Of a stretch of 56,045 nt of DNA, positions 27 through 46,839 are shown piece by piece. The position numbers and the translations under genes are program-made. The stretch comes from a virus. The stretch is taken from IMG/VR virus record IMGVR_UViG_3300045988_061467, positions 1 through 56,045 of that record; one strand, given 5' to 3'. Each line of letters starts with the position of its first letter. Within the stretch, counting starts at the first letter, position 1. Under the pieces are notes generated by a model that was given only the letters and a program-made list of their open reading frames with translations, ran no database searches and had not been told where the DNA came from.

Positions 27-55
27 ATAGGTATAATTAATTTGTCTTTCTATTT
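1..55. repeat. Terminal direct repeat, copy 1 (identical to 55991..56045); assembly overlap of a circular or circularly permuted genome
   Basis: Read directly: bases 1-55 (aaaccgccagcaaacgccagcggttcataggtataattaatttgtctttctattt) recur letter for letter as the last 55 bases of the window. Confidence 0.95.
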
Positions 56-60
56 ATATT

Positions 61-954: not shown

Positions 955-956
955 AT

Positions 957-1472
957 TTAATTACCTCCGGCTTCTTTCTTAAAGTCATTCGGGTTGAGGT
1001 GAACGACGTCTTGCCACTTTAAAATTTCTACGATCCCGTTCCTGTGGTATTCTGAGAACATTTTGTAGATATCTTCAGTTCCTTTAGGGATTGTAAGTGG
1101 CTTATTTATAGTAACCATAGCATAGTCACCTTCCCAGCCCTCAGCTTCGTAATTTGGAATTTGAAGTTTGAGTTGTTGACCAGGGAAATATGACTTACCA
1201 ATTTCACCTTCTTCAAGGTATTGGATAAGAGTTGCAAATTGGTTATCATAAATAAATGGAGAGCGCAAGTTGACATCTAACAAAGTAGACATCAACGTGT
1301 GATCATTACGGTGTTGAAGATCTTGAATAAGATACTTACCAATTTCTTCGTCAGTTTGTTGCTTCATATCTTCTGTTAAGACATAAGGATATTCGTAGCG
1401 GAAATATGGATTGTTATCCACAACTGCTACTTTAATCCCTTCTTCATCTTCGAAGCGTTCTAGTTTAAACAT
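957..1472 (-). CDS. Hypothetical protein (171 aa) between the collagen-like fibre and the lysin
   Basis: Tightly packed ORF whose stop lies 3 nt before the lysin ATG. No TM segment and no recognisable motif. Confidence 0.6.
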
Positions 1473-1489
1473 AAATTAAACTCCTTTCA

Positions 1490-3397: not shown

Positions 3398-3414
3398 ATT
3401 CTAACCTCCCTTCT

Positions 3415-3448
3415 AATAAAGAATAAAGAGAACCCAGAAGGTTCTCTT
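3415..3448 (-). terminator. Hairpin plus U-rich tail just after the holin gene (attenuator or terminator within the late operon)
   Basis: 9-bp stem aagagaacc (3426-3434) / ggttctctt (3440-3448) with a 5-nt loop. On the minus-strand RNA it is followed by UAUUCUUUAUU. Confidence 0.5.
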
Positions 3449-3451
3449 GGG

Positions 3452-3784
3452 CTATTCTTTAGTCCAGGCGTCATTCATCTGCTTGACAGCTGATTCGACG
3501 AATGTATCAAGGTCTTGATCCGTCATATGAATATTATACTTAGTTAGTTCTTCACGGATTTTAGTTCGCGCCTGTTCTAGTTTATCCTGACCTTTATAGC
3601 CGGTCTGAGTTGATACTTGTTCAACTGCGTTAACTGCATTTCGAGCTAAAATCTCAACGATTTTAACAGTCTGCTCTCCGCCCTTTTTCACTAGATATTC
3701 CTTAATTGATTTAACGGCAATTCCAGCTAAAAGGACGAAAATGCTAATCGCCGTGTTGATGATAATTTCGTTAATTTGTTCCAT
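3452..3784 (-). CDS. Holin, LL-H-type (110 aa)
   Basis: Single N-terminal TM (IIINTAISIFVLLAGIAV) followed by a charged helical tail (AVNAVEQVSTQTGYKGQDKLEQA) that resembles the Holin_LLH family layout. It sits in the lysis region. Confidence 0.65.
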   Translation of the reverse strand: MEQINEIIINTAISIFVLLAGIAVKSIKEYLVKKGGEQTVKIVEILARNAVNAVEQVSTQTGYKGQDKLEQARTKIREELTKYNIHMTDQDLDTFVESAVKQMNDAWTKE

Positions 3785-3787
3785 AGT

Positions 3788-4219
3788 CTATTCTCCCATA
3801 TTATTATCGTATTCCTCTTTAATAGGAATTTCTTTGTACTTATCGAATAACGTTTCGACCTCTCCGTTACCTCCAAGGTTCTTATAACTTTCGAACAAAA
3901 TAGATAACTCTCTAAAATGGTCAATAGTTGTATAGCCTTTCATAATCTCGTATTTAAGGTCATGATATAGACGATAGCGTTGAATCTTTCTAGTACCGTC
4001 TTGTATAACGTCATTTTGATGATTGATGTCTGCGGTTGTACGATCAATACCATCTACTTGATCTTTAAGAGTAGATAACGTAGTCGAGATACCCTTTAAG
4101 ACTTTTTTATTTTCAGCGGACTTCCACTCAAATAACTTATTCAGTAAGATAGTAAGAATCCCACTAAAAGCTGTAATAATTGTAGTTAGGACCGCCGTAT
4201 CTTTCAACCATAGTGGCAT
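3788..4219 (-). CDS. Membrane-anchored protein (143 aa), possible second holin or lysis accessory
   Basis: N-terminal TM (AVLTTIITAFSGILTILLNKLF) followed by a coiled-coil-like region. It is adjacent to the holin. Confidence 0.35.
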   Translation of the reverse strand: MPLWLKDTAVLTTIITAFSGILTILLNKLFEWKSAENKKVLKGISTTLSTLKDQVDGIDRTTADINHQNDVIQDGTRKIQRYRLYHDLKYEIMKGYTTIDHFRELSILFESYKNLGGNGEVETLFDKYKEIPIKEEYDNNMGE

Positions 4220-4232
4220 ATCCTAGCTCCTC

Positions 4233-4511
4233 CTATCCAGTTTGTTTATTAGAGTCTTCTTTGTTTAACTCTTCTAGAATTTCGTCTTCAATTTCGTACC
4301 GAGTTTGTTGAAGTTTTTGCTCGTCGGTTCGAAGTTCTCTACGATGACTAGCATAAAGATCTGGGTCATGTAGGGTCTCGGAAACTGTCGAAACGGCGTT
4401 GGCATTGGTGTTAATAATTGTAGTTTTAACAAGTCTCTTTTCACCCTCATGGGTAACTGAGAACTCTGCTACAATTTGTCGTGATTTGTTAAGTTCCAGC
4501 ATCATAATCAC
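4233..4511 (-). CDS. Hypothetical protein (92 aa)
   Basis: ORF with GGAGG RBS upstream, lying in the tail/lysis junction. Confidence 0.55.
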   Translation of the reverse strand: MIMMLELNKSRQIVAEFSVTHEGEKRLVKTTIINTNANAVSTVSETLHDPDLYASHRRELRTDEQKLQQTRYEIEDEILEELNKEDSNKQTG

Positions 4512-4551
4512 CTCCTTTCTAATAATTATTATAACATTTTTTAAATGCTTA

Positions 4552-6636
4552 TTAAATAACGAATGAAATATTATCTAAGTTCAACCATTTATTATCTACA
4601 TTGGACTTCACTACTAACCTACCGTCTGTGTTTAGTCCAAGGATCGCTAAACCGAAGTCATTATTTAAGGCTTGTAGGTATATCAGTTTTGAAGGTCGAA
4701 ACTCCGGATCAAGGACAGCAATAACAGTTTCTTTTTCAGTACCACCTTTCCAAATATTACCTTTTAGATACACTACACCTTCCATCGTCTTACAAATATA
4801 GGCGTCACCATAAGAAGAATAATGATTCCATCCACCTTGTAGCACTATCTTTCGCCAAGTTGGACGAGTAATGTCGTCCTTGAACATAAACTCTTTCCAC
4901 GGTTTTGGATTAAATCTACTAGTACTATCAGAAGTTCTAAGAAATGTACGTCCGGTAGACATTGATGTAAAAATCTGAACTATTTTCCAGCTATCGACCC
5001 AAAAGTTCCGAAGGAGTCCCCAATGACCGCCTTGACCTGTAGGATTGTCTGCGTACCTACCATTTCTCCATCCAAACTCAGTTCTCTGTAAGTCCCAAGG
5101 AGCGTCCCCCTGAGCTGATCCTCTACCTACACTTCCATCCGGATTTGTTATTGGGAAGTGCTGAATAGGATTTCCATTTACTAAGACTTGACCTTTAGCA
5201 TTAAGGTTACCGTTTGCATAGATGTCACCTTTTGCGTCAATTGAACCCGGTTTTCCTTGCTCTACAATCTTACCGACTCCTAAACGTCCATCCTTATCGT
5301 AATGAAGAATTACCGACTCAGTAGCTGCAGTTGCTACAAACTCAGTAGAAGTAAATCGATCTTCTATTTTAGCCTTTACGACATACGACTTATCTGGTGG
5401 ATAATTACCTGTCAAGTTAGCAGAAGAGTTAGTTAGTAAGGAAAGGGTAGTAAAGGTAGCTGATGCTTCTCCTCTATCTTCCACAAAGTTAGTAGAGTTC
5501 AGCGGTGCTACTGAGAATGTAATCTTCATGAAATTCTTCTGACTACCGTTTATAACGACAGGAGCAATTTTAGCATTTCTTAGTACCTGCAATGTAGATG
5601 GATTCTGTCTTGTACGCTGTACTGAAAAATTGATAGAAGGTCCATAATACTCTACAACTTTGATAGGTACCTCTTCTACCACAGATTTAATTCCTCGGGT
5701 GTCCTCTACCCAAGCTCTTACAGTAGCAGGCCCATTAAAGTTCATGATCCCTAATTTACCGCCGTTTTCATTGACCACTTGATTCTTGCCTACAATTTCA
5801 GCGTGAAAGGTCTGTATAGTAGATCCATAAATCCCGCTAGCATTGCCAAAATTGACTTGAATATTGGACAAGATTTGAAGAAATTCGTTTCCTGCTAAAA
5901 CTGAACGTGTAGAAGTGGTAGTGTCTATTAAGGAAATTCCTGACAATATAGGTCTAACAGTATCAGGAATATTAAAAGCCCAACCATTAGAATATAGGTC
6001 ACTTCCTACCTGAGTGCTTCCGTTATATGTTCGAATACAGATATCTAACGTTCCTGAACGAGATTTAGGTAACCTTCTAGCTAAATCTAGGGAAGGAGTG
6101 AACGTTACTCTAGATCTATAATTTTTACCTAAATCTATCCAGTCACTACCGAAAACTCTATACCATACTTGGTGAGTGAACGAATCTCCTTTCCTATTTA
6201 GAACAATGGTATGAGGGCTACCTAAATTTCGATCTCCTTCGAATGCTAGAATACCACTAGACCTAGGTATATTGTTCAATGTATACTTATTGGAAATAGT
6301 AATATTTCCATGAAACCCGCTATTAGGGTCAAATGAAGCCCAAACGTCTATAGTCTTAGTTCCGTCGCTGTCATGAGGAACAGTGATTTCTCCACTAGCG
6401 AGAGTGAATTCTTCTCCACTAGTTTCAAAATCAAGATAGCTATCATATACATAAGCATTATTCAACCATACTTTTAAACGACTAATCTTTCCATAGGTAA
6501 GGGTTCTAACTGATCCTTCACGGTCTAAAGTAGCACGCCACTTGACTTTTGAAGAGTTACTAGTAACGTCCTGACTGACTTGATCTACGTAAAGATGCAA
6601 GTAAAGAAACCCAGATGAGTTGCTATAGTGTGTCAT
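4552..6636 (-). CDS. Tail fibre / receptor-binding structural protein (DUF859-like N-terminus), 694 aa from the ATG at 6636
   Basis: The N-terminus (FLYLHLYVDQVSQDVTSNSSKVKWRATL) resembles the siphovirus DUF859 family. I prefer the ATG at 6636 (AAGGAGG, 5-nt spacer) over the track start 6657, because 6657 would overlap the upstream stop at 6647. Confidence 0.5.
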   Translation of the reverse strand: MTHYSNSSGFLYLHLYVDQVSQDVTSNSSKVKWRATLDREGSVRTLTYGKISRLKVWLNNAYVYDSYLDFETSGEEFTLASGEITVPHDSDGTKTIDVWASFDPNSGFHGNITISNKYTLNNIPRSSGILAFEGDRNLGSPHTIVLNRKGDSFTHQVWYRVFGSDWIDLGKNYRSRVTFTPSLDLARRLPKSRSGTLDICIRTYNGSTQVGSDLYSNGWAFNIPDTVRPILSGISLIDTTTSTRSVLAGNEFLQILSNIQVNFGNASGIYGSTIQTFHAEIVGKNQVVNENGGKLGIMNFNGPATVRAWVEDTRGIKSVVEEVPIKVVEYYGPSINFSVQRTRQNPSTLQVLRNAKIAPVVINGSQKNFMKITFSVAPLNSTNFVEDRGEASATFTTLSLLTNSSANLTGNYPPDKSYVVKAKIEDRFTSTEFVATAATESVILHYDKDGRLGVGKIVEQGKPGSIDAKGDIYANGNLNAKGQVLVNGNPIQHFPITNPDGSVGRGSAQGDAPWDLQRTEFGWRNGRYADNPTGQGGHWGLLRNFWVDSWKIVQIFTSMSTGRTFLRTSDSTSRFNPKPWKEFMFKDDITRPTWRKIVLQGGWNHYSSYGDAYICKTMEGVVYLKGNIWKGGTEKETVIAVLDPEFRPSKLIYLQALNNDFGLAILGLNTDGRLVVKSNVDNKWLNLDNISFVI

Positions 6637-9898: not shown

Positions 9899-10738
9899 CT
9901 AATAATATGATGGACTTAGGAACATTTCTACCGTAACGGGTAAAGCATTAGTCCATGAAGCCGTATCACTAGCACGGTACTGAATTTCGATAGTACTCTC
10001 TCCAGTAGGTACCTTGAAGAAAGCTCCTCTTTTAATATACCTAAATATATTCGTTACTTGACGACTCGACTGTATCTCAATAAGTTCGAAAGTCCCTAAA
10101 TTAAGCATAATAACTGAACCAGTTTCCATAAGAACTGAGTTAGTACCGAACTCAACAAACTTTCCTGAACTCTTTTCCTCAATACGGAAGTACCCGTTCA
10201 CTCGACTATTAGCTCTTAATTCAATTCGAACTTGACGAGTAGGTCTTCCAGGGTTTGGAAGTTTACTTCCACCGTCGCTCGAATTAAAATTATAAGTCCT
10301 TCGAATGACTGAATTAGTGTACTCATAGGCGTCTTTGAATTGAATACCAATTTTGATAATCAATGTAGCTTCACCTAGAGTAGGAACTTCTGTCAGTTTT
10401 CCATGTTCACTCTCTCCTAAAAACTTACCCAACCTATAAAAGTCCGGATCCTCTTTAGTTGAAATTCGCCAAAATGATTTTGATCGAATGAACTGTTTAA
10501 ATTCTCTATATTTAGCATTTACATATTTTTCCGATATGCCTTTGAACATAACAGTGACACTCCCTGTCAGTCCGGATAGAGCAGTAGACGGAGAATCTAA
10601 TACTCCGTCTATCCCCTCTGGGTTTTTAAACCCTGAATCCTTAAATCCTGCCAAGGTAAGTCCTGTATAGTCCAGCACGGTCGCTCCTTTAGTAGCTAAA
10701 TCAATTCCATCTACTAATAGCGTCTGTCTGTTAGCCAT
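9899..10738 (-). CDS. Distal tail protein (Dit, siphovirus tail component)
   Basis: 279-aa ORF directly after the tape measure gene, the conserved TMP-Dit-Tal order. Confidence 0.6.
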   Translation of the reverse strand: MANRQTLLVDGIDLATKGATVLDYTGLTLAGFKDSGFKNPEGIDGVLDSPSTALSGLTGSVTVMFKGISEKYVNAKYREFKQFIRSKSFWRISTKEDPDFYRLGKFLGESEHGKLTEVPTLGEATLIIKIGIQFKDAYEYTNSVIRRTYNFNSSDGGSKLPNPGRPTRQVRIELRANSRVNGYFRIEEKSSGKFVEFGTNSVLMETGSVIMLNLGTFELIEIQSSRQVTNIFRYIKRGAFFKVPTGESTIEIQYRASDTASWTNALPVTVEMFLSPSYY

Positions 10739-10749
10739 ACTAACCTCCT

Positions 10750-13700
10750 CTATGGTGTTACAATGTTACCGAAACTTGATAAAGTATCTTTACTCTTATT
10801 ATACAGCCCTCTTGAGAGTTTGTCAATGTCGTCGTTATTTCTTACAACGATAGTCCCAATAGAGATTGTCGTTTGTTCTTTACCTCTAGAAGTTCCACTT
10901 CCTTGAGGTCTGTCAGCGTCCTTATCCTTATTACCGTATAGGTCTACATTAGGAGTTCTTACTGCGTCTAATACATTACCAAATCCTGGGTTAGGTAGTT
11001 CACTAGGCATCTCGTCTACAATTTGCTCGAACACGTCTTTGACCTTCTGAACTACTCCATTCTCTTGGATGTTCATCTTCACGTTACTTAGTGCGTCAGT
11101 AACTGTTTCAGCCATTTCTCTAGCCTTGTCACGAGTAGTTCGAATCATATTACCGATACCGTTTACGAAACCTTCACCAGTGTAAACACCCATCTTCTCC
11201 ATTACACGAGATGGTGAGTGGATACCAAGGAAACCTTTAACGGCGTTCAATGCACTTCTAGCCATATTAGCCGCAGCGTTTACTGCTGAACTTACCATTG
11301 ACCCAATACCGTTAATGAATCCGCGAACTAAGTTGACCCCAGCACTTGCCATCTGTCCAGCGAATCCAGTGACACGAGAGATCATTGAACTTCCCATGGA
11401 TGCAATCTTACCGATTACGGAACCAACCATAGATCCAATACCACTAGCAAGGTTTCGAATAAGGTTTGCTCCTCCAGATAACATCTGTCCTAAGAAGCTA
11501 GCAATCTTACTAATCACTGAACCCATCATCGAGCCGATAGTAGACAGTAATGAACCTAATAATGAAGAGATACCTTGAATCAGTGCTCTTAGGAGTTGAA
11601 CCCCTGCCTGAAGAATTTTAGGAGCGTGATCTATAATAGCTTTTAGAAAGGCCATCATAATTTGAATAGCTCCGGCAATCAGTTGAGGAAGTACCTGAAT
11701 AATTCCTTGTAGCAACGCAAGTAGCAATTTAACCCCAGCCGCAAGTATCTGAGGAAGGTTCGATAAGATCGAATTTAATAACGCAGTTATAATTTGAATA
11801 GCTGCTGTTATAAGTTCAGGTATCATTTGAACAAGTCCTTGAATGAGTGCCATTAGGATTTGAATACCTGCCTGAAGGATAGGTCCTATGTTTTGAACTA
11901 GCGCATTTACTAGACCCATGATAATCTGTAATGCGGCTTCGAGTAGCATAGGTAGTGCTTGAATTAGTCCTTGCGCAAGTGCCATAAGGATCTGTAAAGC
12001 CGCCTCTATAATAGCAGGTAAAGCCTGTACCAATCCCTGAATGAGAGCCTGAATAATTTGTAACGCTGCGCCAATAATTGTAGGTAGCGCCTGAACGAGT
12101 CCGTTAAATAGCGCCATAATGATTTGGAGTGCGGCTTGAATAATTGTAGGTAAGGCTTGAGAAATACCGTTAATTAAAGCCGTTAAAATTTGAACACCTG
12201 CTGCTAGTATTGTCGGTAGAATACTTGAGAGTGTGCTTACCAGCGTGGTAATTACCTGTATAATAACAGATGCAATTCCTGGAAGAGCGCTAACTATACC
12301 TTCAATGATTTTAAGTAGGATTTCAGTTCCCTTTTCTAAGAATATAGGTAGGTACTGACTAATCATGTCTGCGGCACTTTGAATAGTGCTAGTCAAGTTA
12401 TCGAATACTTGAGTAATTCCATCTGCGTTCAGTTCACCTGTACGGGCCCAAGCAGATAGGAACGAAATGACAAGACTAATAACAAAACCTAGAGGTCCAG
12501 TAATTCCAAAGAACGCAAGTCCTACCTTAGTAAGCACTGACACGGCGATTGACATAATGCCGCCTAACGTACCAAAAGCTCCTCCTAAACGTTCGAGTCC
12601 GTTACTAATAAATGAACCTATTGAGGATCCTGCTTGTCCTATGGTTAGTCCAAATCGGCTTAGTAGATTAGTCACTTTTGCACTAATAATTGCACCAAAT
12701 TCCCTGAACTTCTCGCCAGCCTTTTGTAACCACTCTCCTAATTCTTTCATTTTAGGTATTAGCCATCCAATAACTCCACCCAAACCGGCCTTAATAGCTG
12801 GACCTAAGCTATTGACAAAGTTTCGAAACTTCTCGGACTTAGTGTACGCTATCATAATGACGGCGGCTAGAGCAAAGAATATTGCTATAACTCCGGCAAT
12901 CGTTCCCATCGTTCCTAGAAACGCAGGTCCAAGAAATTGTGCAGCCATTTGAAGTTTAACCATTGTAGTGATTACAGTACCAGCTATCAATAATAGTGGA
13001 CCTAATGCTGCAACCATTGCCCCGAATATTACAACCATTTTTTGACCTGTAGGAGACATATTTACAAACGCCTCGATCAAATTAGTAATACCTGCGACAA
13101 TTTTCTTCAAAGCAGGTTCTAAAATTTGCTGAATAATAATTGCAGCAGATTCGAACGCTCCTCCCATTTGCTCGATTTTACTTGCAAGGTTGTCCTGCAT
13201 AGTCTCTGCCATTTCCTTAGCAGCTCCGTCTGAGTTGATAAGTGAGTTTGTCATCTTATCTAATTTCTCCGGACCTGCGTCTAATAGCGCAAGCATACCT
13301 GAGAGTGAGTTCTGACCGTACAAGGTTACGAGATGTCGGTTCTTTTCTTCTTGTGTTAGTCCCGCCGTAGCAGTTTTCAGTTGAGCAAGTTGTTCCTTCA
13401 GTGGGATCATCTTACCATTTGCGTCGTAGAATGATACCCCTAATTGTTCCATGGACTTAACCATAGCCTTAGTAGGTTTAGCAATACGCGAGAGAGCGCC
13501 TCTAAGCGTGGTTCCGGCTTGCGAGCCTTTAATACCGGCGTCGGCCATAATACCAATAGATGCAGCCGTTTCTTCAAGGCTCAAGCCCATAGAGTGTGCA
13601 ACCGGTGCGACGTATTTCATCGCCTCAGCCATATCACTCGTCTCAGCGTTGGTGTCTGCCGCAGCTCTTGCGAATACGTCAGCGACGTGTCCAGCTTTCG

Positions 13701-38210: not shown

Positions 38211-39283
38211 TATTCTTCCGGCTCTTGAAGTGCTAAGAAGTAAACGACACCATTCGATGAGATCTTAATTGCATTTTCGCTTCCATAAGAGACAGTGAAG
38301 TTTTCTTCGGTGACCGTTGATACAATTTCCTTCAAGAGTAAGCTGTTAAGGTGGCAAGTGAATTCTTTTTTCGAAACCTTTTTGCCTGCAGATGCGTACA
38401 TAATGTCTTCATAACTGCTTGTCGAAGTTTTAATTCGAAGTCGATCTTTTAAGAACAAGAATTCAACAGTCCCCTTATCAAAGGCTGAAGTGAATAGGAC
38501 AAGACGATCTAATACACTCAAGATCTCTGCAGTAGGAACCGCCGCATCGTCAATGAATTCGAGTGAATCCAGCTGTGAAACGTCTTCATAATCTTCCATA
38601 CCTTCCATCAATTTTCCGTAAATTTCAACCGACGCTGACGAAATGTAGACAGTATTGCTATCAATTTGCCAGAAGTACATTTTTTCATCAGGAATACTAG
38701 CAAGAATGCTCATTAAGTTATAAGGAACAAGCATTTCTAATTGTTCTTCTTCGATAGGGTTGATACATACGCGAATAATGTCTGTAGTAATTGCTTTTCC
38801 GCCCTTTAACAGGAAGCCGGTATAAATTCCATCTGCTCCTGATTTAGATACCGCAGAATCGTTAATATTGGCGATCCCGTAGAACAGCGAACTTTTCAAT
38901 GTCAATGCGTCCTCTTCTTTGACATCTTCTAATAGGTGGTCAAAGGTAGGATACTCTTCGTCTTCTGTAACGATGTCAATATTGTATTCCCCATTCCCAA
39001 TAACTTTTAGCGAAGATTCTTCAGGAACTAATGTGATAGTCGCTGCAGTTGTCTTTTCTACAAGTTTTCCAAACTGTTCTGCTTTCACAATGACGTCAAT
39101 TTCAACATCACTGTCGATAATGCATCGAAGGAAGTTTGAGCCGTCATACGCTGTGAACATAACGCATTCACCGTCACCGAAAATATGCCAATAGTTTGTG
39201 ATTTCTAGCAACTTGCTAGGCTTCAACTTATTGAGCTGAGAGACAATTTTTGAAAGTTCTTCAGTCTTGAACTTAATACTCAT
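38210..39283 (-). CDS. dnaN: Sliding clamp, DNA polymerase III beta-like (DnaN-like)
   Basis: The 357-aa length, three-domain periodicity and its context with a clamp loader support the call. Sequence similarity was judged only by eye. Confidence 0.55.
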   Translation of the reverse strand: MSIKFKTEELSKIVSQLNKLKPSKLLEITNYWHIFGDGECVMFTAYDGSNFLRCIIDSDVEIDVIVKAEQFGKLVEKTTAATITLVPEESSLKVIGNGEYNIDIVTEDEEYPTFDHLLEDVKEEDALTLKSSLFYGIANINDSAVSKSGADGIYTGFLLKGGKAITTDIIRVCINPIEEEQLEMLVPYNLMSILASIPDEKMYFWQIDSNTVYISSASVEIYGKLMEGMEDYEDVSQLDSLEFIDDAAVPTAEILSVLDRLVLFTSAFDKGTVEFLFLKDRLRIKTSTSSYEDIMYASAGKKVSKKEFTCHLNSLLLKEIVSTVTEENFTVSYGSENAIKISSNGVVYFLALQEPEE

Positions 39284-39312
39284 AATATGAGCCTCCTTTT
39301 TTTGATATATAT

Positions 39313-39342
39313 AATATACACGAATTACCCTAAATCTGTAAA
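39313..39342 (-). promoter_or_regulatory. Family-2 promoter upstream of the clamp gene
   Basis: Minus strand reads TTTACAgatttagggtaattcgtgTATATT (18-nt spacer). Confidence 0.55.
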
Positions 39343-39349
39343 CCTATTT

Positions 39350-39589
39350 CTAAATAATTTTAAATCTTCTAAGCATGTTGAGTTTTGCTTCATAAGTTCC
39401 ATTCACGGCAGCCTCTTGCATTTTGAGTACAATAAAAGGAGGCTCGTCAATATTGTTGAAACTATAGAATGTGAATAACTGGATAATAGCTTCGTCGACG
39501 CCTATTTTCCCTTCTCGAAAATTTAAGGAAAGTTGACGTTTAAACTCGACCAGTTTTTGATATTCTTGGTATGTTTGAATTTTTCTCAT
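39350..39589 (-). CDS. Hypothetical protein (79 aa)
   Basis: First ORF after the family-1 promoter at 39625-39653. Confidence 0.5.
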   Translation of the reverse strand: MRKIQTYQEYQKLVEFKRQLSLNFREGKIGVDEAIIQLFTFYSFNNIDEPPFIVLKMQEAAVNGTYEAKLNMLRRFKII

Positions 39590-39624
39590 AATATAGATTC
39601 CCCTTTTGTTTTATTTATAGTATG

Positions 39625-39653
39625 ATTATACGATAATGAATGAATAATGTCAA
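39625..39653 (-). promoter_or_regulatory. Family-1 promoter
   Basis: Minus strand reads cgcTTGACAttattcattcattatcgTATAAT (17-nt spacer) with an A/T-rich upstream tract. Confidence 0.7.
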
Positions 39654-39674
39654 GCGTTTTTGTAAATTTTTTAC

Positions 39675-39702
39675 AAAAAAAAATAAGAGCGAAAAGCTCT
39701 TA
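39675..39702 (-). terminator. Strong Rho-independent terminator after the DpdA-like gene
   Basis: Stem taagagc (39684-39690) / gctctta (39696-39702) with loop gaaaa, followed on the minus strand by nine U. Confidence 0.8.
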
Positions 39703-39703
39703 T

Positions 39704-40639
39704 CTAAAATAGTCGACGCTGACGATTTTTAATTCCCTTGAATTCATAGTTCTCTGCCCAATCCAGCATGTATTGAACATTGAACAATGCTCGAAGTTTA
39801 TAGTCATCAACTAATTGTTCTAAACTAAAATGCGCTCCAGTTTCTTCAATAATAGACTCGATTTCAACTTGAACAGGTTTTGGCAGCCTTCGGACAGCAT
39901 CAATTCCTCCGTTCTTCTGTGATAAGTCAACTAGTCCTTTTGAAGTCATAATGTTTCCCATAGCCCCTGTCAACAGTACAGAAGTCGAGTCGGCGCTATA
40001 AAATGGGTGACGCTCTAATTGGCTAGTAACTGTCATCCCGAAAGCGTGAGTCTTGACATCTGGATTAGAACTGTTTCGAATAACTTCGAATACTCGTTCC
40101 ATCCATTTGTCTTTATGCTTTGTAGTCGAGTCATTGGCTGGAGAAATCCCGATGTAAGGAATATGCTTCCCGCCTTCGAATGTAGTCTCGAGCATCAAGT
40201 TGAGCCATTTAAAGTCTTCTCCCATATGGAAAATAGGTAAGAGCTTGTCTTTCTCAACCATTCGCTCGCGCATGTATAGATAGTTATCCCAAGAAATTTG
40301 TGGCGCCTCTAAAAGCTGTTCACGTGTCTTAGGCTGTCTAAATACACCAGGAATTTTATCGAGTTCAGCAATGCAGTCAAACATTCCTACATTATCATTG
40401 ACATATTCGATATAGGCGTCAATGTCAACTTCAGCTCCCTTGGTATGAGCAGAATATGCACTAGAGTCGACGAATAATTTTGAAGTAGTGTTTGGATTGT
40501 TTTTCTTATGTTCAATCCACCTTTTGCCAATTCCGTTTCTTTCATACAGCTGATTGAATAGGCGATTGGCTCCTCTTTCCTTCAAATAATCGTCAGTGCT
40601 AATAGCATGTCCGCCTGCGAAATATAGATTAAATCCCAT
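39704..40639 (-). CDS. dpdA: DpdA-like DNA guanine transglycosylase (TGT superfamily)
   Basis: LFVDSSAYSAHTKG, YIGISP, HAFGMT and SADSTS resemble TGT/DpdA barrel motifs. It is the last gene of the preQ1 cassette and ends in QRRLF. Confidence 0.65.
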   Translation of the reverse strand: MGFNLYFAGGHAISTDDYLKERGANRLFNQLYERNGIGKRWIEHKKNNPNTTSKLFVDSSAYSAHTKGAEVDIDAYIEYVNDNVGMFDCIAELDKIPGVFRQPKTREQLLEAPQISWDNYLYMRERMVEKDKLLPIFHMGEDFKWLNLMLETTFEGGKHIPYIGISPANDSTTKHKDKWMERVFEVIRNSSNPDVKTHAFGMTVTSQLERHPFYSADSTSVLLTGAMGNIMTSKGLVDLSQKNGGIDAVRRLPKPVQVEIESIIEETGAHFSLEQLVDDYKLRALFNVQYMLDWAENYEFKGIKNRQRRLF

Positions 40640-41126
40640 TTCTCGCTCCTATCATTGTTCTAAAATGGCTGTTCTTCGCCATTGTAGAAATAAGGAAGTA
40701 TCCAATTAAAACGATAATCGCTTCACTAATTCCTACATAGACGGAAGATTCCCAAAAAGGTAAAGAGTAAACGATTCGAAGTTCCAGCGCGATAAGGTAA
40801 GCATTAGCAACAACTGGACAGATAAGTGAATATAGAGGACTTGACATCTTAGCGACTTTCACCATTGACACTACTCCAATGAAAGTAGCAAGTGAACCGA
40901 ATATAACGTCAATTAGTCCAAGAGGTGAAAAGAAGTTTGCAATAATTGTCCCTACTACAATCCCAGGAGTCCATCTATGGTTCCATAAAGGTAGAAGAAT
41001 TAGGAATTCACTTACTCTAAATTGAATAGGTCCATAACTAATAGCAGAAAATGAGACAGTTAATGTCACATATAAGGCTGCAATAAGAGCTGTTCGAACG
41101 AGCCATAGGGTTGCACTTTTATTCAT
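40629..41126 (-). CDS. queT: QueT-family queuosine-precursor transporter (ECF S-component-like membrane protein)
   Basis: 165 aa with ~5 TM segments. LIAALYVTLTVSFSAISYGPIQFRVSEFLILLP...GLIDVIFGSLATFIG matches the QueT pattern (iQfRisE, D-x-fG). Confidence 0.7.
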   Translation of the reverse strand: MNKSATLWLVRTALIAALYVTLTVSFSAISYGPIQFRVSEFLILLPLWNHRWTPGIVVGTIIANFFSPLGLIDVIFGSLATFIGVVSMVKVAKMSSPLYSLICPVVANAYLIALELRIVYSLPFWESSVYVGISEAIIVLIGYFLISTMAKNSHFRTMIGARNGI

Positions 41127-41136
41127 TTTTCGCCTC

Positions 41137-41772
41137 CTACTTTTTAATCAACTGAAGCAATTCTGCTCGAGCAGATGCGTCATCTTGGAAAAGCCCTCGC
41201 ATAGTTGAAGTCACTGTCGTTGCTCCATGTTTCTTAATTCCACGGCCACTCATACAAGTATGCTCAGCCTCTACAATAACGGCGACAGCTTGAGGATTTA
41301 GAACTTCCTGAATAGCGTCAGCGATTTGCTGAGTCAAGCGCTCTTGTACTTGAAGTCTTTTAGCATATCCTTCAACCACTCGACCGAATTTTGAAAGACC
41401 TGTAATCTTATCCTGAGGAATGTATGCAATATGCACCTTCCCTACGAACGGAGCTAAATGATGCTCACATAATGAATTGAATGGAATGTCCTTAACTAGG
41501 ACGAGGTCGTTATGATCTACGTCAAAAGTCTTTTCTAAATGTAGTTTAGGATCTTCACGATAGCCTTCAGTATGTTCAGCTAGGGCTTTTATAAAACGGA
41601 ACGGAGTATCTTGTAGTCCGTCACGTTCTGCGTCCTCTCCCATTAAATTAAATAGTCCTCGAATCGCTGCTTCTGCGTTGTCCAGCAGTACGATATCATC
41701 TGTCTTTAGGGTAGCCATTCCATTCCCTTTCCCTAATACGGTGCGGATTTTATTCAGTTGTTCAATTTTCAT
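41137..41772 (-). CDS. folE: GTP cyclohydrolase I (FolE)
   Basis: Signature SLCEHHLAPFVGKVHIAYIP. The ATG at 41772 has AGAGGAG 6 nt upstream and sits just after the queE stop. The track start at 41832 is rejected. Confidence 0.85.
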   Translation of the reverse strand: MKIEQLNKIRTVLGKGNGMATLKTDDIVLLDNAEAAIRGLFNLMGEDAERDGLQDTPFRFIKALAEHTEGYREDPKLHLEKTFDVDHNDLVLVKDIPFNSLCEHHLAPFVGKVHIAYIPQDKITGLSKFGRVVEGYAKRLQVQERLTQQIADAIQEVLNPQAVAVIVEAEHTCMSGRGIKKHGATTVTSTMRGLFQDDASARAELLQLIKK

Positions 41773-41773
41773 T

Positions 41774-42568
41774 CTATACTCCTCTCTTATTATCATATAC
41801 CAGTGTGTGAAGCTGTGGTAAAGGTCGAACATTGTTAAAAGCTGGATCTTGATATACTTTGTCCCATAGCCAACCTAATTTTTCAAGTAGTCTGTCACTG
41901 ATTTTTCCTTCTTCGTAGGCGTTTGCATTTCCGACTGATAAATAGTTGACATCCGGCAACTTATCTTCAAAAGTTTTGAACATATCACGCGCATAAGCTA
42001 GGTCATTTTCGTCAAAGATGACGATTTTAAATGACCAGTCAAGGTGCTCTTCATTCATTCTATCTACAATAGCTTCAAGAATTTTCATATTAGTTCGCAT
42101 TCCACTTGAAGGAGGTTTAGGACTAATAGTGATATCGCTTACTTCTTTGAACCATTCCTGGAATCGAGTTCCTTGAGTTTCGAGACCGAACTTGAATCCA
42201 TGCCCTTTTAGAATCGAAATCATCTTAGCCATAGGCTCGTTGATTAAGGCAGGATTTCCTCCAGTCAATGTCACGTGGTTACAGATTTGCTCACCCTTTT
42301 CGTTGAACGCTAATTTCAAAATTCGATTAGCTGCTTCTTCTCCTGTAATGTATTCAGGTTCTGTAGTACCGTTCCAAGTGAACGCCGAATCACACCAGTT
42401 GCAGTGATAGTCACATCCACCAGTTCGAATGAAAATGGTTTTTTGACCTATAACCATTCCTTCCCCTTGGATTGTAGGACCAAAGACTTCCATAATAGGC
42501 ATCTTTTCAGGGTCGCGAACATTGATTCGAATCTTGCCTCTTTCAGGCTGGTTGTACTGATTAACCAT
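41774..42568 (-). CDS. queE: 7-carboxy-7-deazaguanine synthase (QueE, radical SAM)
   Basis: EVFGPTIQGEG and the cysteine motif CDYHCNWCDS. The ATG at 42568 has AGGAG 7 nt upstream. Confidence 0.8.
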   Translation of the reverse strand: MVNQYNQPERGKIRINVRDPEKMPIMEVFGPTIQGEGMVIGQKTIFIRTGGCDYHCNWCDSAFTWNGTTEPEYITGEEAANRILKLAFNEKGEQICNHVTLTGGNPALINEPMAKMISILKGHGFKFGLETQGTRFQEWFKEVSDITISPKPPSSGMRTNMKILEAIVDRMNEEHLDWSFKIVIFDENDLAYARDMFKTFEDKLPDVNYLSVGNANAYEEGKISDRLLEKLGWLWDKVYQDPAFNNVRPLPQLHTLVYDNKRGV

Positions 42569-43079
42569 TAGCATGCTCCTGTAGAATTTCACGAACAGTA
42601 ATCTTTTCGTCTTTGTCGATAAAGGTTACATTCTTGAACATTTCAATCTCATCCTCTGTGAAAATCTCGTAGTAAGTACACTCTGCGCAACCTGTAGGAG
42701 TTTCCCATAGTTTGATAGAGTCGATACGAGAATGCTGCCACATGAGTTCCGTAAGTGTCCAGGTAAGGAATCTTGACATATTTTCAGCCGTAGTTCTAAA
42801 TCCAAATAGAACCCGCTTAGTGTCAACTGCGTTTGCTAAAGCAATAGGCTCATTTCCTTGAAGAAGAACAGCGTGGTCAAGTCTGTCAATGAATGTACCT
42901 GCGATTTTCTTGACGTGATAAAAGTCAACAACCATTCCTTGACTCGAACCGTGGTCATAAGTTCCGCCTGCTAATGAAATTTCGACCTTGTAAGTATGCC
43001 CATGCAAGTTGGCACATTTACCAAAATGGCCAACTAGTTGATGAGCTGCGTCGAATGTTAAGGTTTTAGAAACTCTCAT
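42561..43079 (-). CDS. queD: 6-carboxy-5,6,7,8-tetrahydropterin synthase (QueD) with a C-terminal extension
   Basis: FDAAHQL...KCANLHGHTYKVE (QueD Cys-His-His signature). About 50 extra C-terminal residues. Confidence 0.8.
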   Translation of the reverse strand: MRVSKTLTFDAAHQLVGHFGKCANLHGHTYKVEISLAGGTYDHGSSQGMVVDFYHVKKIAGTFIDRLDHAVLLQGNEPIALANAVDTKRVLFGFRTTAENMSRFLTWTLTELMWQHSRIDSIKLWETPTGCAECTYYEIFTEDEIEMFKNVTFIDKDEKITVREILQEHANG

Positions 43080-43080
43080 A

Positions 43081-43767
43081 TCAATTCTCCTTGTAATGAA
43101 TGGGGTCAGTCATTCCATTTTCTTCGAATGCCTTTTTGCGGTCGATACAAGTTGCGCAAGTTCCACAACTTTCCTCATCGCTTTCATAACATGAGCGAGT
43201 TAGGAAGTAAGGGACATCTAAATCAAGCCCCCATTTAACTACCTGCGCCTTGGTTAATGTAAGTAGATGAGCGACAAGGGTTACCTTGCCTCCAGTTCCA
43301 TATTCCATTGCATTTGACATTGAATTATAGAATTCAGGAGTACAGTCAGGATAGGCTCCTCCAGCCGCATCGTCTGCGTGAGCGCCATATACGACATATG
43401 AAGCTCCAACCGAATAAGCATAAGCCGCAGCCTGTGAAAGCATAAGACCATTTCTAAAAGGGACATAGGTATCAACAACTTCTTTTTCTTTTAGAATTTC
43501 AGCATAAGATTTGCCGTGAGACATTTCGCCCTTTCCTTGTAATAGAGAAGAGCTAGAGCTTGAATAGATTTTCGAGTCAATTTCGAGAACGGTGAACTTG
43601 ACTCCGTAGAACATTGCAACATTAGCAGCATTTTCGAGTTCTGCTTCATGCTTTTGTCCATAATTGAATGCTATAGCATGAACATTTTTAGCGCCCCATT
43701 TATCAACTTCGATAGCTAAGCAAGTGGCTGAGTCGACTCCTCCTGATAATAATACGACAGATTTCAT
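43081..43767 (-). CDS. queC: 7-cyano-7-deazaguanine synthase (QueC)
   Basis: PP-loop SGGVDSATC and a C-terminal zinc cysteines cluster (CYESDEESCGTCATCIDR). Confidence 0.85.
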   Translation of the reverse strand: MKSVVLLSGGVDSATCLAIEVDKWGAKNVHAIAFNYGQKHEAELENAANVAMFYGVKFTVLEIDSKIYSSSSSSLLQGKGEMSHGKSYAEILKEKEVVDTYVPFRNGLMLSQAAAYAYSVGASYVVYGAHADDAAGGAYPDCTPEFYNSMSNAMEYGTGGKVTLVAHLLTLTKAQVVKWGLDLDVPYFLTRSCYESDEESCGTCATCIDRKKAFEENGMTDPIHYKEN

Positions 43768-43776
43768 TTCAGCCTC

Positions 43777-44298
43777 CTATCGAATAGCTCTTCCTAGAGT
43801 GTGAACACTTCCCAAGAAATTCAATTTGCGTTGAAGTGAAAGCTGTTCGAGTTCAGGAGTTGCAAATTCAGGATTGACTTTGTTGACGAAAGGATAAATT
43901 GAAATTCCGCCACGAGGAGTGAATAGGCCCATGACTTCAATGTACTTAGGATTCATCAATTCATACAAGTCATTCAAGATAATGTTCATGCAATCTTCGT
44001 GGAAGTCGCCGTGGTTACGGAAGCTAAATAGGTAAAGTTTTAAAGATTTTGACTCAACCATTTCTTCATTTGGAATGTAACTAATGAAAACATTTGCGAA
44101 ATCAGGCTGTCCTGTTTTAGGACATAGTGAAGTGAATTCATATCCGTCGAATGTTACTAGGTAATTATTTTCAGGATGTTTGTTAGGGAATGTTTCAAGA
44201 ACTTCAGGATTATAATCATAATCGTATTTGGTGTCTTGGTTTCCTAATAGTGTAACGCCTGTTAGTTCAGCGTCTGTGCGTGTAGTGTTTTGACTCAT
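43777..44298 (-). CDS. queF: NADPH-dependent 7-cyano-7-deazaguanine reductase (QueF, unimodular type)
   Basis: Catalytic-Cys context [14 protein letters not shown] and the QueF motif [20 protein letters not shown]. Confidence 0.85.
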
Positions 44299-44362
44299 GT
44301 TCGAGCCTCCTTTATTTTTATTTTTAGCAGGATGTCAGGTTCTACAAAACTGCTTCATATAT

Positions 44363-44392
44363 ATTATACACGAATTTGATTCATTTTGTTAA
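44363..44392 (-). promoter_or_regulatory. Family-2 promoter upstream of queF
   Basis: Minus strand reads TTAACAaaatgaatcaaattcgtgTATAAT (18-nt spacer). Confidence 0.55.
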
Positions 44393-44425
44393 GCAAAAAT
44401 AACCCAATATCTGCTTCATAATTTT

Positions 44426-44454
44426 ATTATACGATAACGAATGAATGATGTCAA
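44426..44454 (-). promoter_or_regulatory. Family-1 promoter, in tandem with the family-2 promoter, upstream of queF
   Basis: Minus strand reads cgcTTGACAtcattcattcgttatcgTATAAT (17-nt spacer). Confidence 0.7.
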
Positions 44455-44464
44455 GCGTTTTTGT

Positions 44465-44492
44465 AAAAAAAAATAATCAGGAATTTTCCTGA
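44465..44492 (-). terminator. Strong Rho-independent terminator after the polymerase gene
   Basis: Stem tcagga (44477-44482) / tcctga (44487-44492), followed on the minus strand by UUAUUUUUUUUU. Confidence 0.75.
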
Positions 44493-44499
44493 CTACTTT

Positions 44500-46839
44500 T
44501 TAGATTTCAATTTCTTCACCATACCATCTTTCTACTATACTAGGGTCACATTTCATTGGAAGACTAATAATGTCCTTGGCTGCTTCAATCATAACTTCTG
44601 TCAACCGTTCTGCGCCTCGTTTAGCATTCTCTTTAGGAACTTCACCTAGTAACTCGTCATGAACTGGAATCATTAAATGGAATCCTAATTCTTTTAGTTC
44701 AGGGTCATTGTGTACCTTAATCATTGCGTACTTAGTCATGTCGGCTGCTGTTCCTTGAATAACGGAGTTCAAACATTGACGCTGAGCATCAGCTATCTTG
44801 CCTCCATTATCCTTGATAAGAATTCCCTCAGCTTTTGCTTGGTCTTTAATTTCCTGCTTCTTCTTAAATCCCCAAGCCCTGTCCAGCTGGGCCCAATATT
44901 TTTCGATAATATGTTCAGGAACAGCGTCATCCATCTGTTGGTCAGCGTCGAAGTTAAATGGGTCGAAGTCTTCGTTCTTGCTGGCGTCAATATACTCGAA
45001 TTCATATTCAGGCAAGCTCATATCAGGAAGTCTTCTTCTTCGACCGGTAGCGGTTTGAACGTATCCAAATTCCTGCGCGTGCTGTTGAACGAATATGATA
45101 TAGTCTGCTACTTTAGGGAACTCGCTAAAGAAGTCTTCTATAACTTTATTCGCTTCTTTGACAGACACATTCATTTGCTCAGCGATTGAGTTAGCCCCAC
45201 GGCCATACATTAGACCTAAAAGAACTGACTTGACTGAGTTTCTTCGAAGTTTCCCTTCCTTGTTAGTTGTTCCGTCTGGATAAAACTCTAAACACTCTTC
45301 ATAAGGGACACCATAAAGTTTCGAACCGATAACTGAATATAGGTCCAGGTTTTGTTCGTAAGCGTGACGCATACTTTCATCACCACTTAATTCAGCGAGT
45401 GAACGTGGCTCTTGTTGAGAGTAGTCACTACCGATAATGTAGTGGCCTGGACTTGCTGAAAAGATTTGTCGAACTACTGCGCCTTCTCCTCTTGACGGAA
45501 TATTCTGTAAGTTAGGGCCTTCACTTGACATACGTCCAGTCTTAGCTCCGTACTGTTTGAATGTAGTGTGAATTCGATTGTCAGGTTTTGCAAGGTGCTG
45601 GTCAAGTGTTGTATAGGTAGAAACTAATTTTGCATATTTTCTATATTTCAAAAGTGCTTTTGAGATATCGTTATCAAAATGCTCGACAATACTTTCACCC
45701 GTCCCTCTAGGTTTATCCTTTTCAGGACTCTTCAATCCCATGATGTCATAAAACAGAATTGCTAATTGAGTAGGACTGGAAATGCTTACTGCTACTCTAC
45801 CTCTTGCATCCATTTCGAGTTTTTGATAGCTTTGGAAATTAGTTTGTCGAAGTTCTTCAATTTCAGGTTGCCACTCACTAACAAGCTGTTGAAATTCAGC
45901 TTCTGCTTCATTCATGCTATTAGTAAACTTCTCTCTAATCTCTTGTAGCTTGTCCTGGTCTAAATCTACTCCGTAGACTTCCATGTCAAAGAGGACTTTA
46001 ATTAGAGGCATTTCAATATTATGAAGAACCCATGAAACTTTTTCTAGGTTGTATTCTTCACATTCTTCAGTTCCCGGTGTTAGATATTGTTTTTGAAACT
46101 CATAAAGTTCGAAAGTTTGCAAAGGGTCATAAGCCGCATACATATATGCAACATCCGGAGGAATTAAACTAAAAGGAATGCCTTTGAACAAGTCATTGAA
46201 TTTAGCAACCTCTGCATTTTCTTCATTTCGAACATATTTAGAATGAAGACTTTTCAAGCTGTGAGATTCGTTTTCATTTAAAAGCATTGCGGCTAAATAA
46301 GTATCCCATTCAGGCTCATTCATCTTGACGCCAAGTCGCCAATAAATCGATTTCATATCAAATTTCGAATTGTGGTAGATAATAGGAATTCCTGAATCTA
46401 TAATTCGTTGAAGCATTTTCTTCATAAACTCAGGAGAAATTTGATTCTTAATTCGCATCTTTGTCATATTGCTAACATGATTGACAGGAGCGTAGATTCC
46501 TTTTTGACTCGGTGAGTACAAGCAGACTCCTGCTAGCTCATCGTGAATAGTATCCAGTCCGTCAGTTTCCACGTCAATAGAACCTATTCCATCTTCAATC
46601 ATTTTGTCTACATACTGCTCGAGTTTTTCTTCCTCAGTGACTAACTCAAGTCTATCAAGAACGTGTCCAAGAATTCTAGTTGAAAGAGTTCGAGCTCTAG
46701 CGACTGCATCCTTTAGAGCGTTTCCTGAAATGTAAGTAACCTCAACTGCAGGCTTCTTATTTCTTCTTTGTGCTAATAATTGGGCGTCATTCTTCTTACT
46801 TGAACGAGGCTTTGCACCAAAAAGTCCTTTCTGTGACAT
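44500..46839 (-). CDS. polA: Family A DNA polymerase (PolA-like, with a 3'-5' exonuclease domain and an N-terminal basic extension)
   Basis: Exo motif (IDVETDGL), pol motifs (DYSQQEPR, RRNSVKSVLLGLMYG, IPVHDELL). The N-terminus reads MSQKGLFGAKPRSSKK. Confidence 0.85.
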   Translation of the reverse strand: MSQKGLFGAKPRSSKKNDAQLLAQRRNKKPAVEVTYISGNALKDAVARARTLSTRILGHVLDRLELVTEEEKLEQYVDKMIEDGIGSIDVETDGLDTIHDELAGVCLYSPSQKGIYAPVNHVSNMTKMRIKNQISPEFMKKMLQRIIDSGIPIIYHNSKFDMKSIYWRLGVKMNEPEWDTYLAAMLLNENESHSLKSLHSKYVRNEENAEVAKFNDLFKGIPFSLIPPDVAYMYAAYDPLQTFELYEFQKQYLTPGTEECEEYNLEKVSWVLHNIEMPLIKVLFDMEVYGVDLDQDKLQEIREKFTNSMNEAEAEFQQLVSEWQPEIEELRQTNFQSYQKLEMDARGRVAVSISSPTQLAILFYDIMGLKSPEKDKPRGTGESIVEHFDNDISKALLKYRKYAKLVSTYTTLDQHLAKPDNRIHTTFKQYGAKTGRMSSEGPNLQNIPSRGEGAVVRQIFSASPGHYIIGSDYSQQEPRSLAELSGDESMRHAYEQNLDLYSVIGSKLYGVPYEECLEFYPDGTTNKEGKLRRNSVKSVLLGLMYGRGANSIAEQMNVSVKEANKVIEDFFSEFPKVADYIIFVQQHAQEFGYVQTATGRRRRLPDMSLPEYEFEYIDASKNEDFDPFNFDADQQMDDAVPEHIIEKYWAQLDRAWGFKKKQEIKDQAKAEGILIKDNGGKIADAQRQCLNSVIQGTAADMTKYAMIKVHNDPELKELGFHLMIPVHDELLGEVPKENAKRGAERLTEVMIEAAKDIISLPMKCDPSIVERWYGEEIEI

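Follow-up and report, generated by a model that had tools for sequence, protein, structure and literature searches.

A seven-gene phage operon that probably makes preQ1 and installs it in phage DNA, orthologous to the system of Streptococcus phage Dp-1

The Dp-1 system and its orthologue in an uncultured phage

The 7-deazaguanine gene cluster of Streptococcus phage Dp-1 was reportedly first read, by Sabri in 2011, as a set of tRNA queuosine genes. It was reinterpreted in 2016 as a DNA modification system, possibly inserting preQ1 (7-aminomethyl-7-deazaguanine) (PMC5699537), and Dp-1 virion DNA has been found to hold 3389 +/- 184 dPreQ1 per 10^6 nucleotides (nt), about 1.7% of G, with dPreQ0, dADG, dG+ and dQ all under detection (Hutinet 2019, PMC6884629). 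In Escherichia phage CAjan the transglycosylase DpdA is genetically required for dPreQ0, and the delta-dpdA phage loses restriction resistance (PMC6884629). Furthermore, phage QueF proteins complement E. coli delta-queF, the free base preQ0 (7-cyano-7-deazaguanine) being reduced, and one phage DpdA2 inserts preQ1 (PMC10516641). Here we analyse a 56,045-nt stretch of the IMG/VR virus record IMGVR_UViG_3300045988_061467 (the window, to which all coordinates refer) and in it a cassette of seven genes, queF, queC, queD, queE, folE, queT and dpdA, which is an orthologue of the published Dp-1 system (2011, 2016, 2019) and as such already known. Very probably, the cassette forms one operon that supplies preQ1 and installs it in the double-stranded DNA of the phage.

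The window represents a complete genome, kin of Dp-1, reverse-complemented and permuted with respect to HQ268735. At the DNA level 91% of it can be aligned to Dp-1, with about 90-91% identity in the half that holds the replication and que genes and 69-77% in the structural half. The cassette itself corresponds to Dp-1 positions 1-4836, spanning gp1-gp7, at 90.9% DNA identity; in Dp-1 (HQ268735 / NC_015274) the same seven genes lie in the same order at the same location between polA and dnaN, and both flanking terminators as well as promoter P2 are held in common. Protein identities range from 90.0% (FolE) to 98.7% (DpdA against gp7, with 53 synonymous and 4 non-synonymous differences), and the codon differences are synonymous by a wide margin in every gene except queT. 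The cassette is under purifying selection, and near-identical copies are present in several uncultured contigs.

The genes were recovered as seven intact open reading frames (ORFs) on the minus strand, 44298-39704. A GGAGG-like Shine-Dalgarno sequence precedes each of them and the intergenic gaps run from -11 to +10 nt (queE overlaps queD by 8 nt and dpdA overlaps queT by 11 nt), arguing for one tightly coupled operon. Two starts were corrected: queE begins at ATG 42568 instead of GTG 42592, based on the ribosome-binding site and in agreement with near-identical contigs, and folE at 41772 instead of 41832, as its ribosome-binding site and the 211-aa proteins called in the uncultured relative L006 and in Streptococcus phage MS1 indicate. 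A complete preQ0 pathway is encoded, with FolE, QueE and QueC scoring above their NCBIfam equivalog cutoffs and QueD slightly below on TIGR03367 (86.3 bits, cutoff 89.25). The translations display the SGGVDS ATP loop and C-terminal Cys cluster of QueC (96.9% identical to gp2), the C-x3-HGH motif of QueD as CANLHGH (97.1% identical to gp3), the CDYHCNWC cluster of QueE and the CEHH motif of FolE. The queF product, 95.4% identical to gp1, matches B. subtilis QueF (PDB 4F8B) at E 6.7e-67 and keeps both the catalytic Cys and the NADPH motif, present as ESKSLKLYL (pattern E(S/L)K(S/A)hK(L/Y)(Y/F/W)). An assignment as the archaeal QueF-L was ruled out on account of this motif; the protein is QueF.

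These results bear out much of the first-pass annotation of this DNA, which had placed a seven-gene cassette here and linked it to Dp-1-type phages: all ORFs are found on the minus strand, six identified by curated models and dpdA by fold and homologs, and orthology to gp1-gp7 confirms the link. The route it had drawn, from GTP through preQ0 and preQ1 to base exchange in DNA, is likewise upheld, as the gene assignments hold and dPreQ1 has been measured in the orthologous phage.

FolE, QueD, QueE and QueC would turn GTP into the free base preQ0, which QueF, using NADPH, would reduce to preQ1. QueT, joined to an energizing module of the host's energy-coupling factor (ECF) transporters, would open a salvage route for external preQ1 or preQ0. 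DpdA, a predicted zinc-less TIM barrel of the tRNA-guanine transglycosylase (TGT) type, would then swap guanine for preQ1 after replication in limited sequence contexts, likely by double displacement as in TGT and bacterial DpdA, in which D217 would be the nucleophile, D58 the acid/base and D94 the residue that recognises the base. The expected benefit would be shielding of the phage DNA from host nucleases. Within this scheme we infer that the base is that of Dp-1, that preQ0 is reduced as the free base, that QueT serves salvage and that the modification counters restriction.

DpdA and its substrate loop

The 311-aa DpdA has no Pfam or NCBIfam match at E <= 0.01, including the TGT models PF01702 and NCBIfam Tgt, and the label of its phrog_887 match reads 'queuine tRNA-ribosyltransferase'. 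By tblastn it is 47% identical to MS1 gp6 and 30.5% identical to CAjan DpdA (E 2e-20), and 5361 clusters at 50% identity reach E <= 0.001, a measure of the family size. An AlphaFold2 model built with 38 homologs (pLDDT 90.5, pTM 0.88) was compared with the PDB using Foldseek: ranks 1-18 were all TGTs (E 5e-8 to 6e-6, query-normalised TM-score ~0.6), and the DNA-guanine transglycosylase 7UI4 did not feature in the first 50 ranks. In a viral structure library the best matches were phage DpdA-type proteins, including DpdA2 of Vibrio phage nt-1.

For sequence searches we used two profiles, a narrow DpdA alignment (A1) and a broad one (A2) of 49 sequences reaching down to 26% identity. The best PDB match of A2 was 7UI4, the Salmonella 'DNA-guanine transglycosylase', at E 0.0033; aligned with E. 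coli Tgt by hhalign, A1 gave E 0.13 and A2 E 0.0047, the latter at 7.5% probability. Nine positions are invariant in A2, namely D58, Y76, D94, H138, H198, G201, S215, D217 and R283, and D58, D94 and D217 align with residues 115, 150 and 276 of the 7UI4 chain (paper numbering plus 20). In bacterial DpdA Asp95 serves as acid/base, Asp130 in base recognition and Asp256 as nucleophile (PMC10164549). By this alignment we propose D58, D94 and D217 as candidate catalytic residues. A conserved His separates DpdA1 from DpdA2, His196 in phage 9g DpdA and His181 in bacterial DpdA; H138 and H198 are both invariant here, and the hidden Markov model alignment to 7UI4 is three residues off register near H138. 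Only one Cys (C89) is present, and DpdA consequently lacks the Cys3-His zinc site of TGT. The comparison of this protein with DpdA and TGT that the first-pass annotation had suggested thus yields 7UI4 as the best PDB sequence match, no TGT model match and a single Cys; we file the 311-aa protein as a DNA transglycosylase of the DpdA1 type, not a tRNA Tgt.

The relatives place this enzyme among known systems. MS1 (QueC, QueD, QueE, FolE, Vut_1, DpdA) agrees with the window in position, orientation, preQ0 pathway and DpdA family, but its genome has no QueF anywhere, a Vut_1 transporter of the QPTR/YhhQ family stands in place of QueT, and its DpdA, 47% identical, carries the loop GLGGLVG rather than GISPAND; its predicted product is dPreQ0. 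CAjan DpdA (DpdA1), at ~30% identity, shares the invariant Asp and His positions and likewise lies beside a preQ0 pathway and a predicted preQ0 transporter; unlike the window, which has QueF and GISPAND, CAjan is devoid of QueF, contains preQ0 at ~32% of G and has the loop YITIGGMVGR. The DpdA of Salmonella Montevideo (7UI4) shares the TGT-like TIM barrel and the three aligned Asp. Its deposited chain is longer, however, at 436 aa (of which a tag seems to account for ~20), its loop reads GGMVPL and its specificity is for preQ0. It works as one part of a larger Dpd restriction-modification system, with DpdB among the other components, whereas no partner gene was found in the window cassette. 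Bacterial Tgt (PF01702) has the same fold as the window DpdA, which at 311 aa is 64 residues shorter than E. coli Tgt (375 aa), and we infer that the base-exchange chemistry is common to both.

In 7UI4, Gly206-Gly207 lie in the loop after beta-strand 6 that holds the 7-substituent of the base in TGT and DpdA (PMC10164549). The window DpdA has S166-P167 at this site, within Y-I-G-I-S-P-A-N-D (beta6-alpha6 loop G164-I-S-P-A-N-D170). We surveyed the loop in 80 related IMG/VR loci and further known loci, scoring the flanks for que genes. All 21 SP-type loci that encode QueC also encode QueF (seven clusters at 70% DpdA identity), and none of the 32 QueC-bearing loci with a G-L-G-G-[LT]-V-G loop does (two clusters, one of which includes MS1). 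The SP..ND loop recurs in three distant phages with QueF, Cellulophaga phi47:1, Dinoroseobacter R5C and Arthrobacter Mufasa8; the phi47:1 DpdA is 29% identical to that of the window, and mdPreQ1 has been measured in this phage. CAjan, in which dPreQ0 was measured and which lacks QueF, has a GG-type loop. The surveyed loci are akin, so that locus counts exaggerate the number of independent cases; a fairer tally would be about a dozen lineages, with a single exception in Mycobacterium phage Funsized, the counter-example on account of which the pairing of loop and QueF was dropped as an absolute rule. Correlative as it is, the pattern would favour a route in which QueF acts on the free base and DpdA inserts preQ1, as opposed to reduction of preQ0 within DNA. 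The first-pass annotation held that the installed base could not be read from the sequence, which was too pessimistic: QueF retains its catalytic Cys and NADPH motif and the DpdA loop is of the QueF-associated type.

We tentatively suggest, with confidence just short of even, that the DpdA1 loop is a specificity code, in which G-[IV]-S-P-x-N-D denotes preQ1 and G-L-G-G-x-V-G denotes preQ0. If so, the DpdA1 sequence would predict the installed base, with the acidic D170 as a candidate for contacting the aminomethyl group of preQ1. A linked possibility is that in pneumococci, themselves unable to make preQ1, the operon would also swamp the host Tgt with this base and thereby alter tRNA modification in the course of infection. 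In the literature searched, no determinant of preQ0 versus preQ1 specificity in DpdA1 is described. A rule that separates bacterial DpdA from TGT, GGhsbb vs GGhsG (PMC10164549), fails for phage DpdA1, as CAjan inserts preQ0 yet reads GGMVGR.

A third loop type, G-[IL]-A-A-T-T-D, was found in two IMG/VR relatives, L049 (dpdA 10001-10927) and L076 (dpdA 10001-10903). Both encode QueD, QueE and FolE, with QueC and QueF missing from the surrounding 10 kb; such a pathway would end at 7-carboxy-7-deazaguanine or a derivative, and these phages may therefore install a different base. Elsewhere in the window DpdA, residues 63-119 (~40283-40453, minus strand), an insert between barrel strands, gave a weak and repeatable match to the anti-CRISPR protein AcrIC9 (PDB 8HJJ, 8G9T), with E-values of 0.75 for the single sequence, 0.026 for A1 and 0.08 for A2. 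The motifs in common are D-V-D-x-Y-[IV]-x-[WY]-L-N and S/G-W-D-N/D-[YF]. The match could be due to chance, or AcrIC9 could be derived from a DpdA fragment.

Supply of preQ1 and competing explanations

QueT matches PF06177 over its full length (profile positions 1-141 of 141) and is rare in phages, occurring in 20 of 50,697 records. Relatives with ~50% DpdA identity keep dpdA between polA and dnaN without synthesis genes, with QueT alone in L013 and a Vut_1/QPTR-family protein alone in L012, L020-22 and L071/72. As such phages carry dpdA and a transporter only, they suggest QueT as a route of substrate supply, and this lends support to a putative salvage role of QueT in feeding DpdA. No EcfA, EcfA' or EcfT partner is present in the Dp-1 annotation, and the other window ORFs were not scanned for them; we assume that QueT would rely on the energizing module of the host. 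In S. mutans, QueT-dependent ECF transport of both preQ0 and preQ1 has been shown (PMC12632869). S. pneumoniae D39 has no queCDE, its QueF lacks the catalytic Cys, and it salvages preQ1 and not preQ0 (PMC12632869). S. pneumoniae makes neither preQ0 nor preQ1 itself, and phages of such hosts therefore have to supply every step of the pathway, QueF among them. Moreover, S. pneumoniae tRNA is starved of preQ1, and 100 nM of added preQ1 raises epoxyqueuosine (oQ) more than 100-fold (PMC12632869). In pneumococci, preQ1 made by the phage probably reaches the host tRNA as a side effect.

Among the uncultured relatives, L009 has a 543-aa ORF at the queE position (3368-4999) with no precomputed Pfam match, which is QueE-like by tblastn at 50% identity and may represent a QueE interrupted by an insertion.

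Several points weigh against supply and installation of preQ1 in DNA as the role of the cassette. The installed base of the window phage would be assigned from proteins 95-99% identical to those of Dp-1. The sequence link of DpdA to solved DpdA and TGT structures is weak, as the E 0.0033 match arises with the broad profile only, and PDB searches with the single sequence or with A1 returned noise only. Funsized combines a QueF that has both catalytic Cys and NADPH motif with a GG-type DpdA. The constraint on queT, the least constrained gene of the cassette, is relaxed (18 synonymous and 16 non-synonymous differences from Dp-1). Finally, going by the legend to Fig. 5 of PMC6884629, Dp-1 DNA lies outside the set tested for restriction resistance; this, together with a modification level of only ~1.7% of G, makes the anti-restriction benefit in pneumococci an extrapolation.

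The order of the last two steps could be reversed, with DpdA inserting preQ0 and QueF then reducing the DNA-bound dPreQ0 to dPreQ1, resembling archaeal QueF-L on tRNA. This route was left open for Dp-1 (PMC6884629), and all DpdA characterised before 2023 inserted preQ0 (PMC10516641), yet the window QueF is a unimodular enzyme of bacterial type and has the NADPH motif missing from QueF-L, none of the phage QueF proteins aligned with QueF-L and in E. coli such proteins reduce free preQ0 (PMC10516641), and the DpdA loop shifts with the presence of QueF, which is unexpected if DpdA always handled preQ0; we regard this order of events as very improbable. That the main purpose is tRNA modification, with a flood of preQ1 from which the host Tgt or the phage enzyme would raise preQ1 or oQ at tRNA position 34 and so retune translation, was the original reading of 2011, and the Dp-1 and MS1 records still annotate a queuine tRNA-ribosyltransferase. 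The preQ1-starved tRNA of S. pneumoniae (PMC12632869) also makes it very probable that phage preQ1 would reach host tRNA as a side effect. As the main purpose it appears quite unlikely, however: dPreQ1 was physically found in Dp-1 DNA, the 311-aa protein with its single Cys has no zinc site and matched no TGT sequence model, among solved structures the DNA enzyme 7UI4 is nearest to it in sequence, and the salvage-only relatives retain dpdA beside the replication genes polA and dnaN.

Pneumococci carry one of DpnI, DpnII and DpnIII, and the Dpn systems act on GATC. Dp-1, with 8 GATC sites (observed/expected 0.07), already evades these systems, and its modification level is low, at ~383 bases per genome. 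Both observations speak for a modification that is real but directed mainly at something other than classical restriction enzymes, such as a self mark, a block to a DNA-binding protein or another defence, or discrimination of phage from host DNA. Congruently, the literature searched yielded no restriction assay on Dp-1 DNA, and PMC4334900 contained nothing relevant. On the other hand, 7-deazaguanines shield the DNA of 9g, CAjan, Rosebush and HVTV-1 from many restriction enzymes, a protection lost in CAjan delta-dpdA (PMC6884629), and pneumococci depend mainly on several restriction-modification systems, including phase-variable type I systems (PMC6755750). We consider a purpose outside classical restriction unlikely, and retain installation of preQ1 in DNA, with shielding from host nucleases as its expected benefit.

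GATC was also considered as the modified motif and rejected: ~383 modified bases would need ~190 sites at two G each, and Dp-1 has 8. The number fits almost any 4-mer (113,012 / 256 = 441), which suggests a specificity of roughly 4 base pairs. The Dp-1 sites all lie at 39231-41212, within the antireceptor genes gp54/gp55. The window, in contrast, has 105 GATC sites (observed/expected 0.73), concentrated in 1-24000, with 82 in the structural half and 20 in the early and replication half at 28-56 kb; seemingly, the sister phages face or faced different restriction pressure.

Flanking signals and differences between the sister genomes

The coordinates of the genes and of the signals around them are collected in Table 1.

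Table 1. Genes of the cassette and flanking signals, in transcriptional order (window coordinates)
Feature	Position	Strand	Description
Upstream intrinsic terminator	44465..44496	-	Hairpin GUAGUCAGGAAAAUUCCUGAUUAU, then T9 tail; directly after the polA stop (44500)
Promoter P1 (family 1)	44426..44460	-	AAACGCTTGACAT-N-ATTCATTC-N-TTATCGTATAAT; -35 and -10 hexamers perfect, 17 nt apart
Promoter P2 (family 2)	44363..44394	-	GCTTAACA-N15-GTGTATAAT; TG-extended -10
queF	43777..44298	-	173 aa; unimodular NADPH-dependent preQ0 reductase; TIGR03139 165.6 bits (cutoff 86.9)
queC	43081..43767	-	228 aa; 7-cyano-7-deazaguanine (preQ0) synthase; TIGR00364 169 bits (150); PF06508 1.7e-57
queD	42561..43079	-	172 aa; 6-carboxytetrahydropterin synthase; PF01242 2.6e-29
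queE	41774..42568	-	264 aa; radical-SAM 7-carboxy-7-deazaguanine synthase; TIGR03365 (Bacillus-type QueE) 279 bits (206)
folE	41137..41772	-	211 aa; GTP cyclohydrolase I; TIGR00063 236.5 bits (182); PF01227 3.8e-72
queT	40629..41126	-	165 aa; substrate-binding (S) component of an ECF transporter for queuosine precursors; PF06177 132.7 bits (33.7)
dpdA	39704..40639	-	311 aa; DNA-guanine transglycosylase, phage DpdA1 type; phrog_887 3.8e-66
Downstream intrinsic terminator	39675..39705	-	Hairpin from the dpdA stop codon, then T9 tail
Second family-1 promoter	39625..39659	-	Exact match to the family pattern; promoter of the next operon (orf79, dnaN onward)

The upstream terminator (-14.8 kcal/mol, z -5.99) is conserved and annotated in Dp-1 at 56442-56472, and the downstream one (-10.9 kcal/mol, z -3.19) is annotated there at 4733-4756. 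The upstream structure could work in both directions, since its flanking A and U tracts can pair. The first-pass annotation had counted the two among the strongest terminators of the genome, which stands for their tails and not for their stems: in a scan of the window no site has a longer T run and one other equals them, and in stem energy they rank only 6th and 12th. A standard terminator scan of the window gave a site count no higher than in shuffled sequence.

The tandem promoters that had been placed ahead of the cassette were confirmed, and both look sigma-70-like. Nothing in the data places the two in different temporal classes, and the proposal in the first-pass annotation that they would keep the pathway active in early and middle phases is a possibility only. 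The hexamers of P1 (44454-44426) read TTGACA-17-TATAAT, matching at 12/12 positions, and those of P2 (44392-44363) TTAACA-18-TATAAT, at 11/12. Four copies of the 35-nt family-1 promoter occur in the window (25915+, 39659-, 44460-, 55842-) where none is expected, with one copy within about 20 nt after each cassette terminator; the second of these marks the downstream boundary of the cassette. A loose P2 pattern (<=3 mismatches) has six window matches, all on the minus strand, against 0.15 expected. Of these signals the GenBank record of Dp-1 lists both terminators and P2 (at 40-69); P1 is missing from the annotation because it spans the ends of that record.

In both tandem promoters the octamer TGAAGCAG lies 5-8 nt 3' of the -10 hexamer (44411-44418 and 44350-44357, minus strand). 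Both copies are kept in Dp-1, and the window holds eight in total, against 2.3 expected, with 7/8 on the minus strand. The octamer may mark a start-site region common to both promoters, serve as an operator or be left over from a promoter duplication. A preQ1 riboswitch was also sought: nothing in the window reached the Rfam gathering score, and no preQ1-I, -II or -III aptamer was found in the 130-nt operon leader or before queT, even at E <= 10 across 39500-44600.

The sister genomes differ on either side of the cassette. The window lacks Dp-1 gp72, which lies between polA and the upstream terminator and encodes a DUF165/YhhQ-like membrane protein of 177 aa; a clean insertion or deletion separates the two genomes here (window 44465-44500 against Dp-1 55855-56472). 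The gp72 family comprises preQ0/preQ1 transporters. In Dp-1 a direct duplication of ~56 nt covers the gp72 3' end and the terminator. Of the near-identical uncultured relatives, L014 and L037 have the gene, and L006, L007 and L018 do not. Directly downstream of the cassette, Dp-1 gp8 (a 57-aa hypothetical protein) is without a counterpart in the window (39591-39604, compared with Dp-1 4837-5038), where the next operon opens directly with a 79-aa ORF homologous to Dp-1 gp9. In the relative L010 polA is split by a GIY-YIG homing-endonuclease gene (260-3640).

Further away, a GC-rich patch of the window (GC 0.526 in 2001-3000) corresponds to a long collagen-like Gly-X-Y repeat in a 635-aa tail-fibre-like protein (1490-3397, minus strand), which is without a DNA match in Dp-1. 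The adjoining endolysin gene (61-954) encodes choline-binding-type repeats, which fits a host of the pneumoniae/mitis group.

As a system the cassette adds little to what is known, and its value is comparative. In Dp-1, MS1, the window and dozens of uncultured relatives dpdA is fixed between polA and dnaN, and the supply module is variable, comprising the complete pathway either with or without QueF, or no more than a transporter. That the substrate loop varies with this module offers a concrete and cheap hypothesis for preQ0 versus preQ1 specificity in DpdA1. As pneumococci are unable to make preQ1, the operon would represent a phage filling a metabolic gap of its host.

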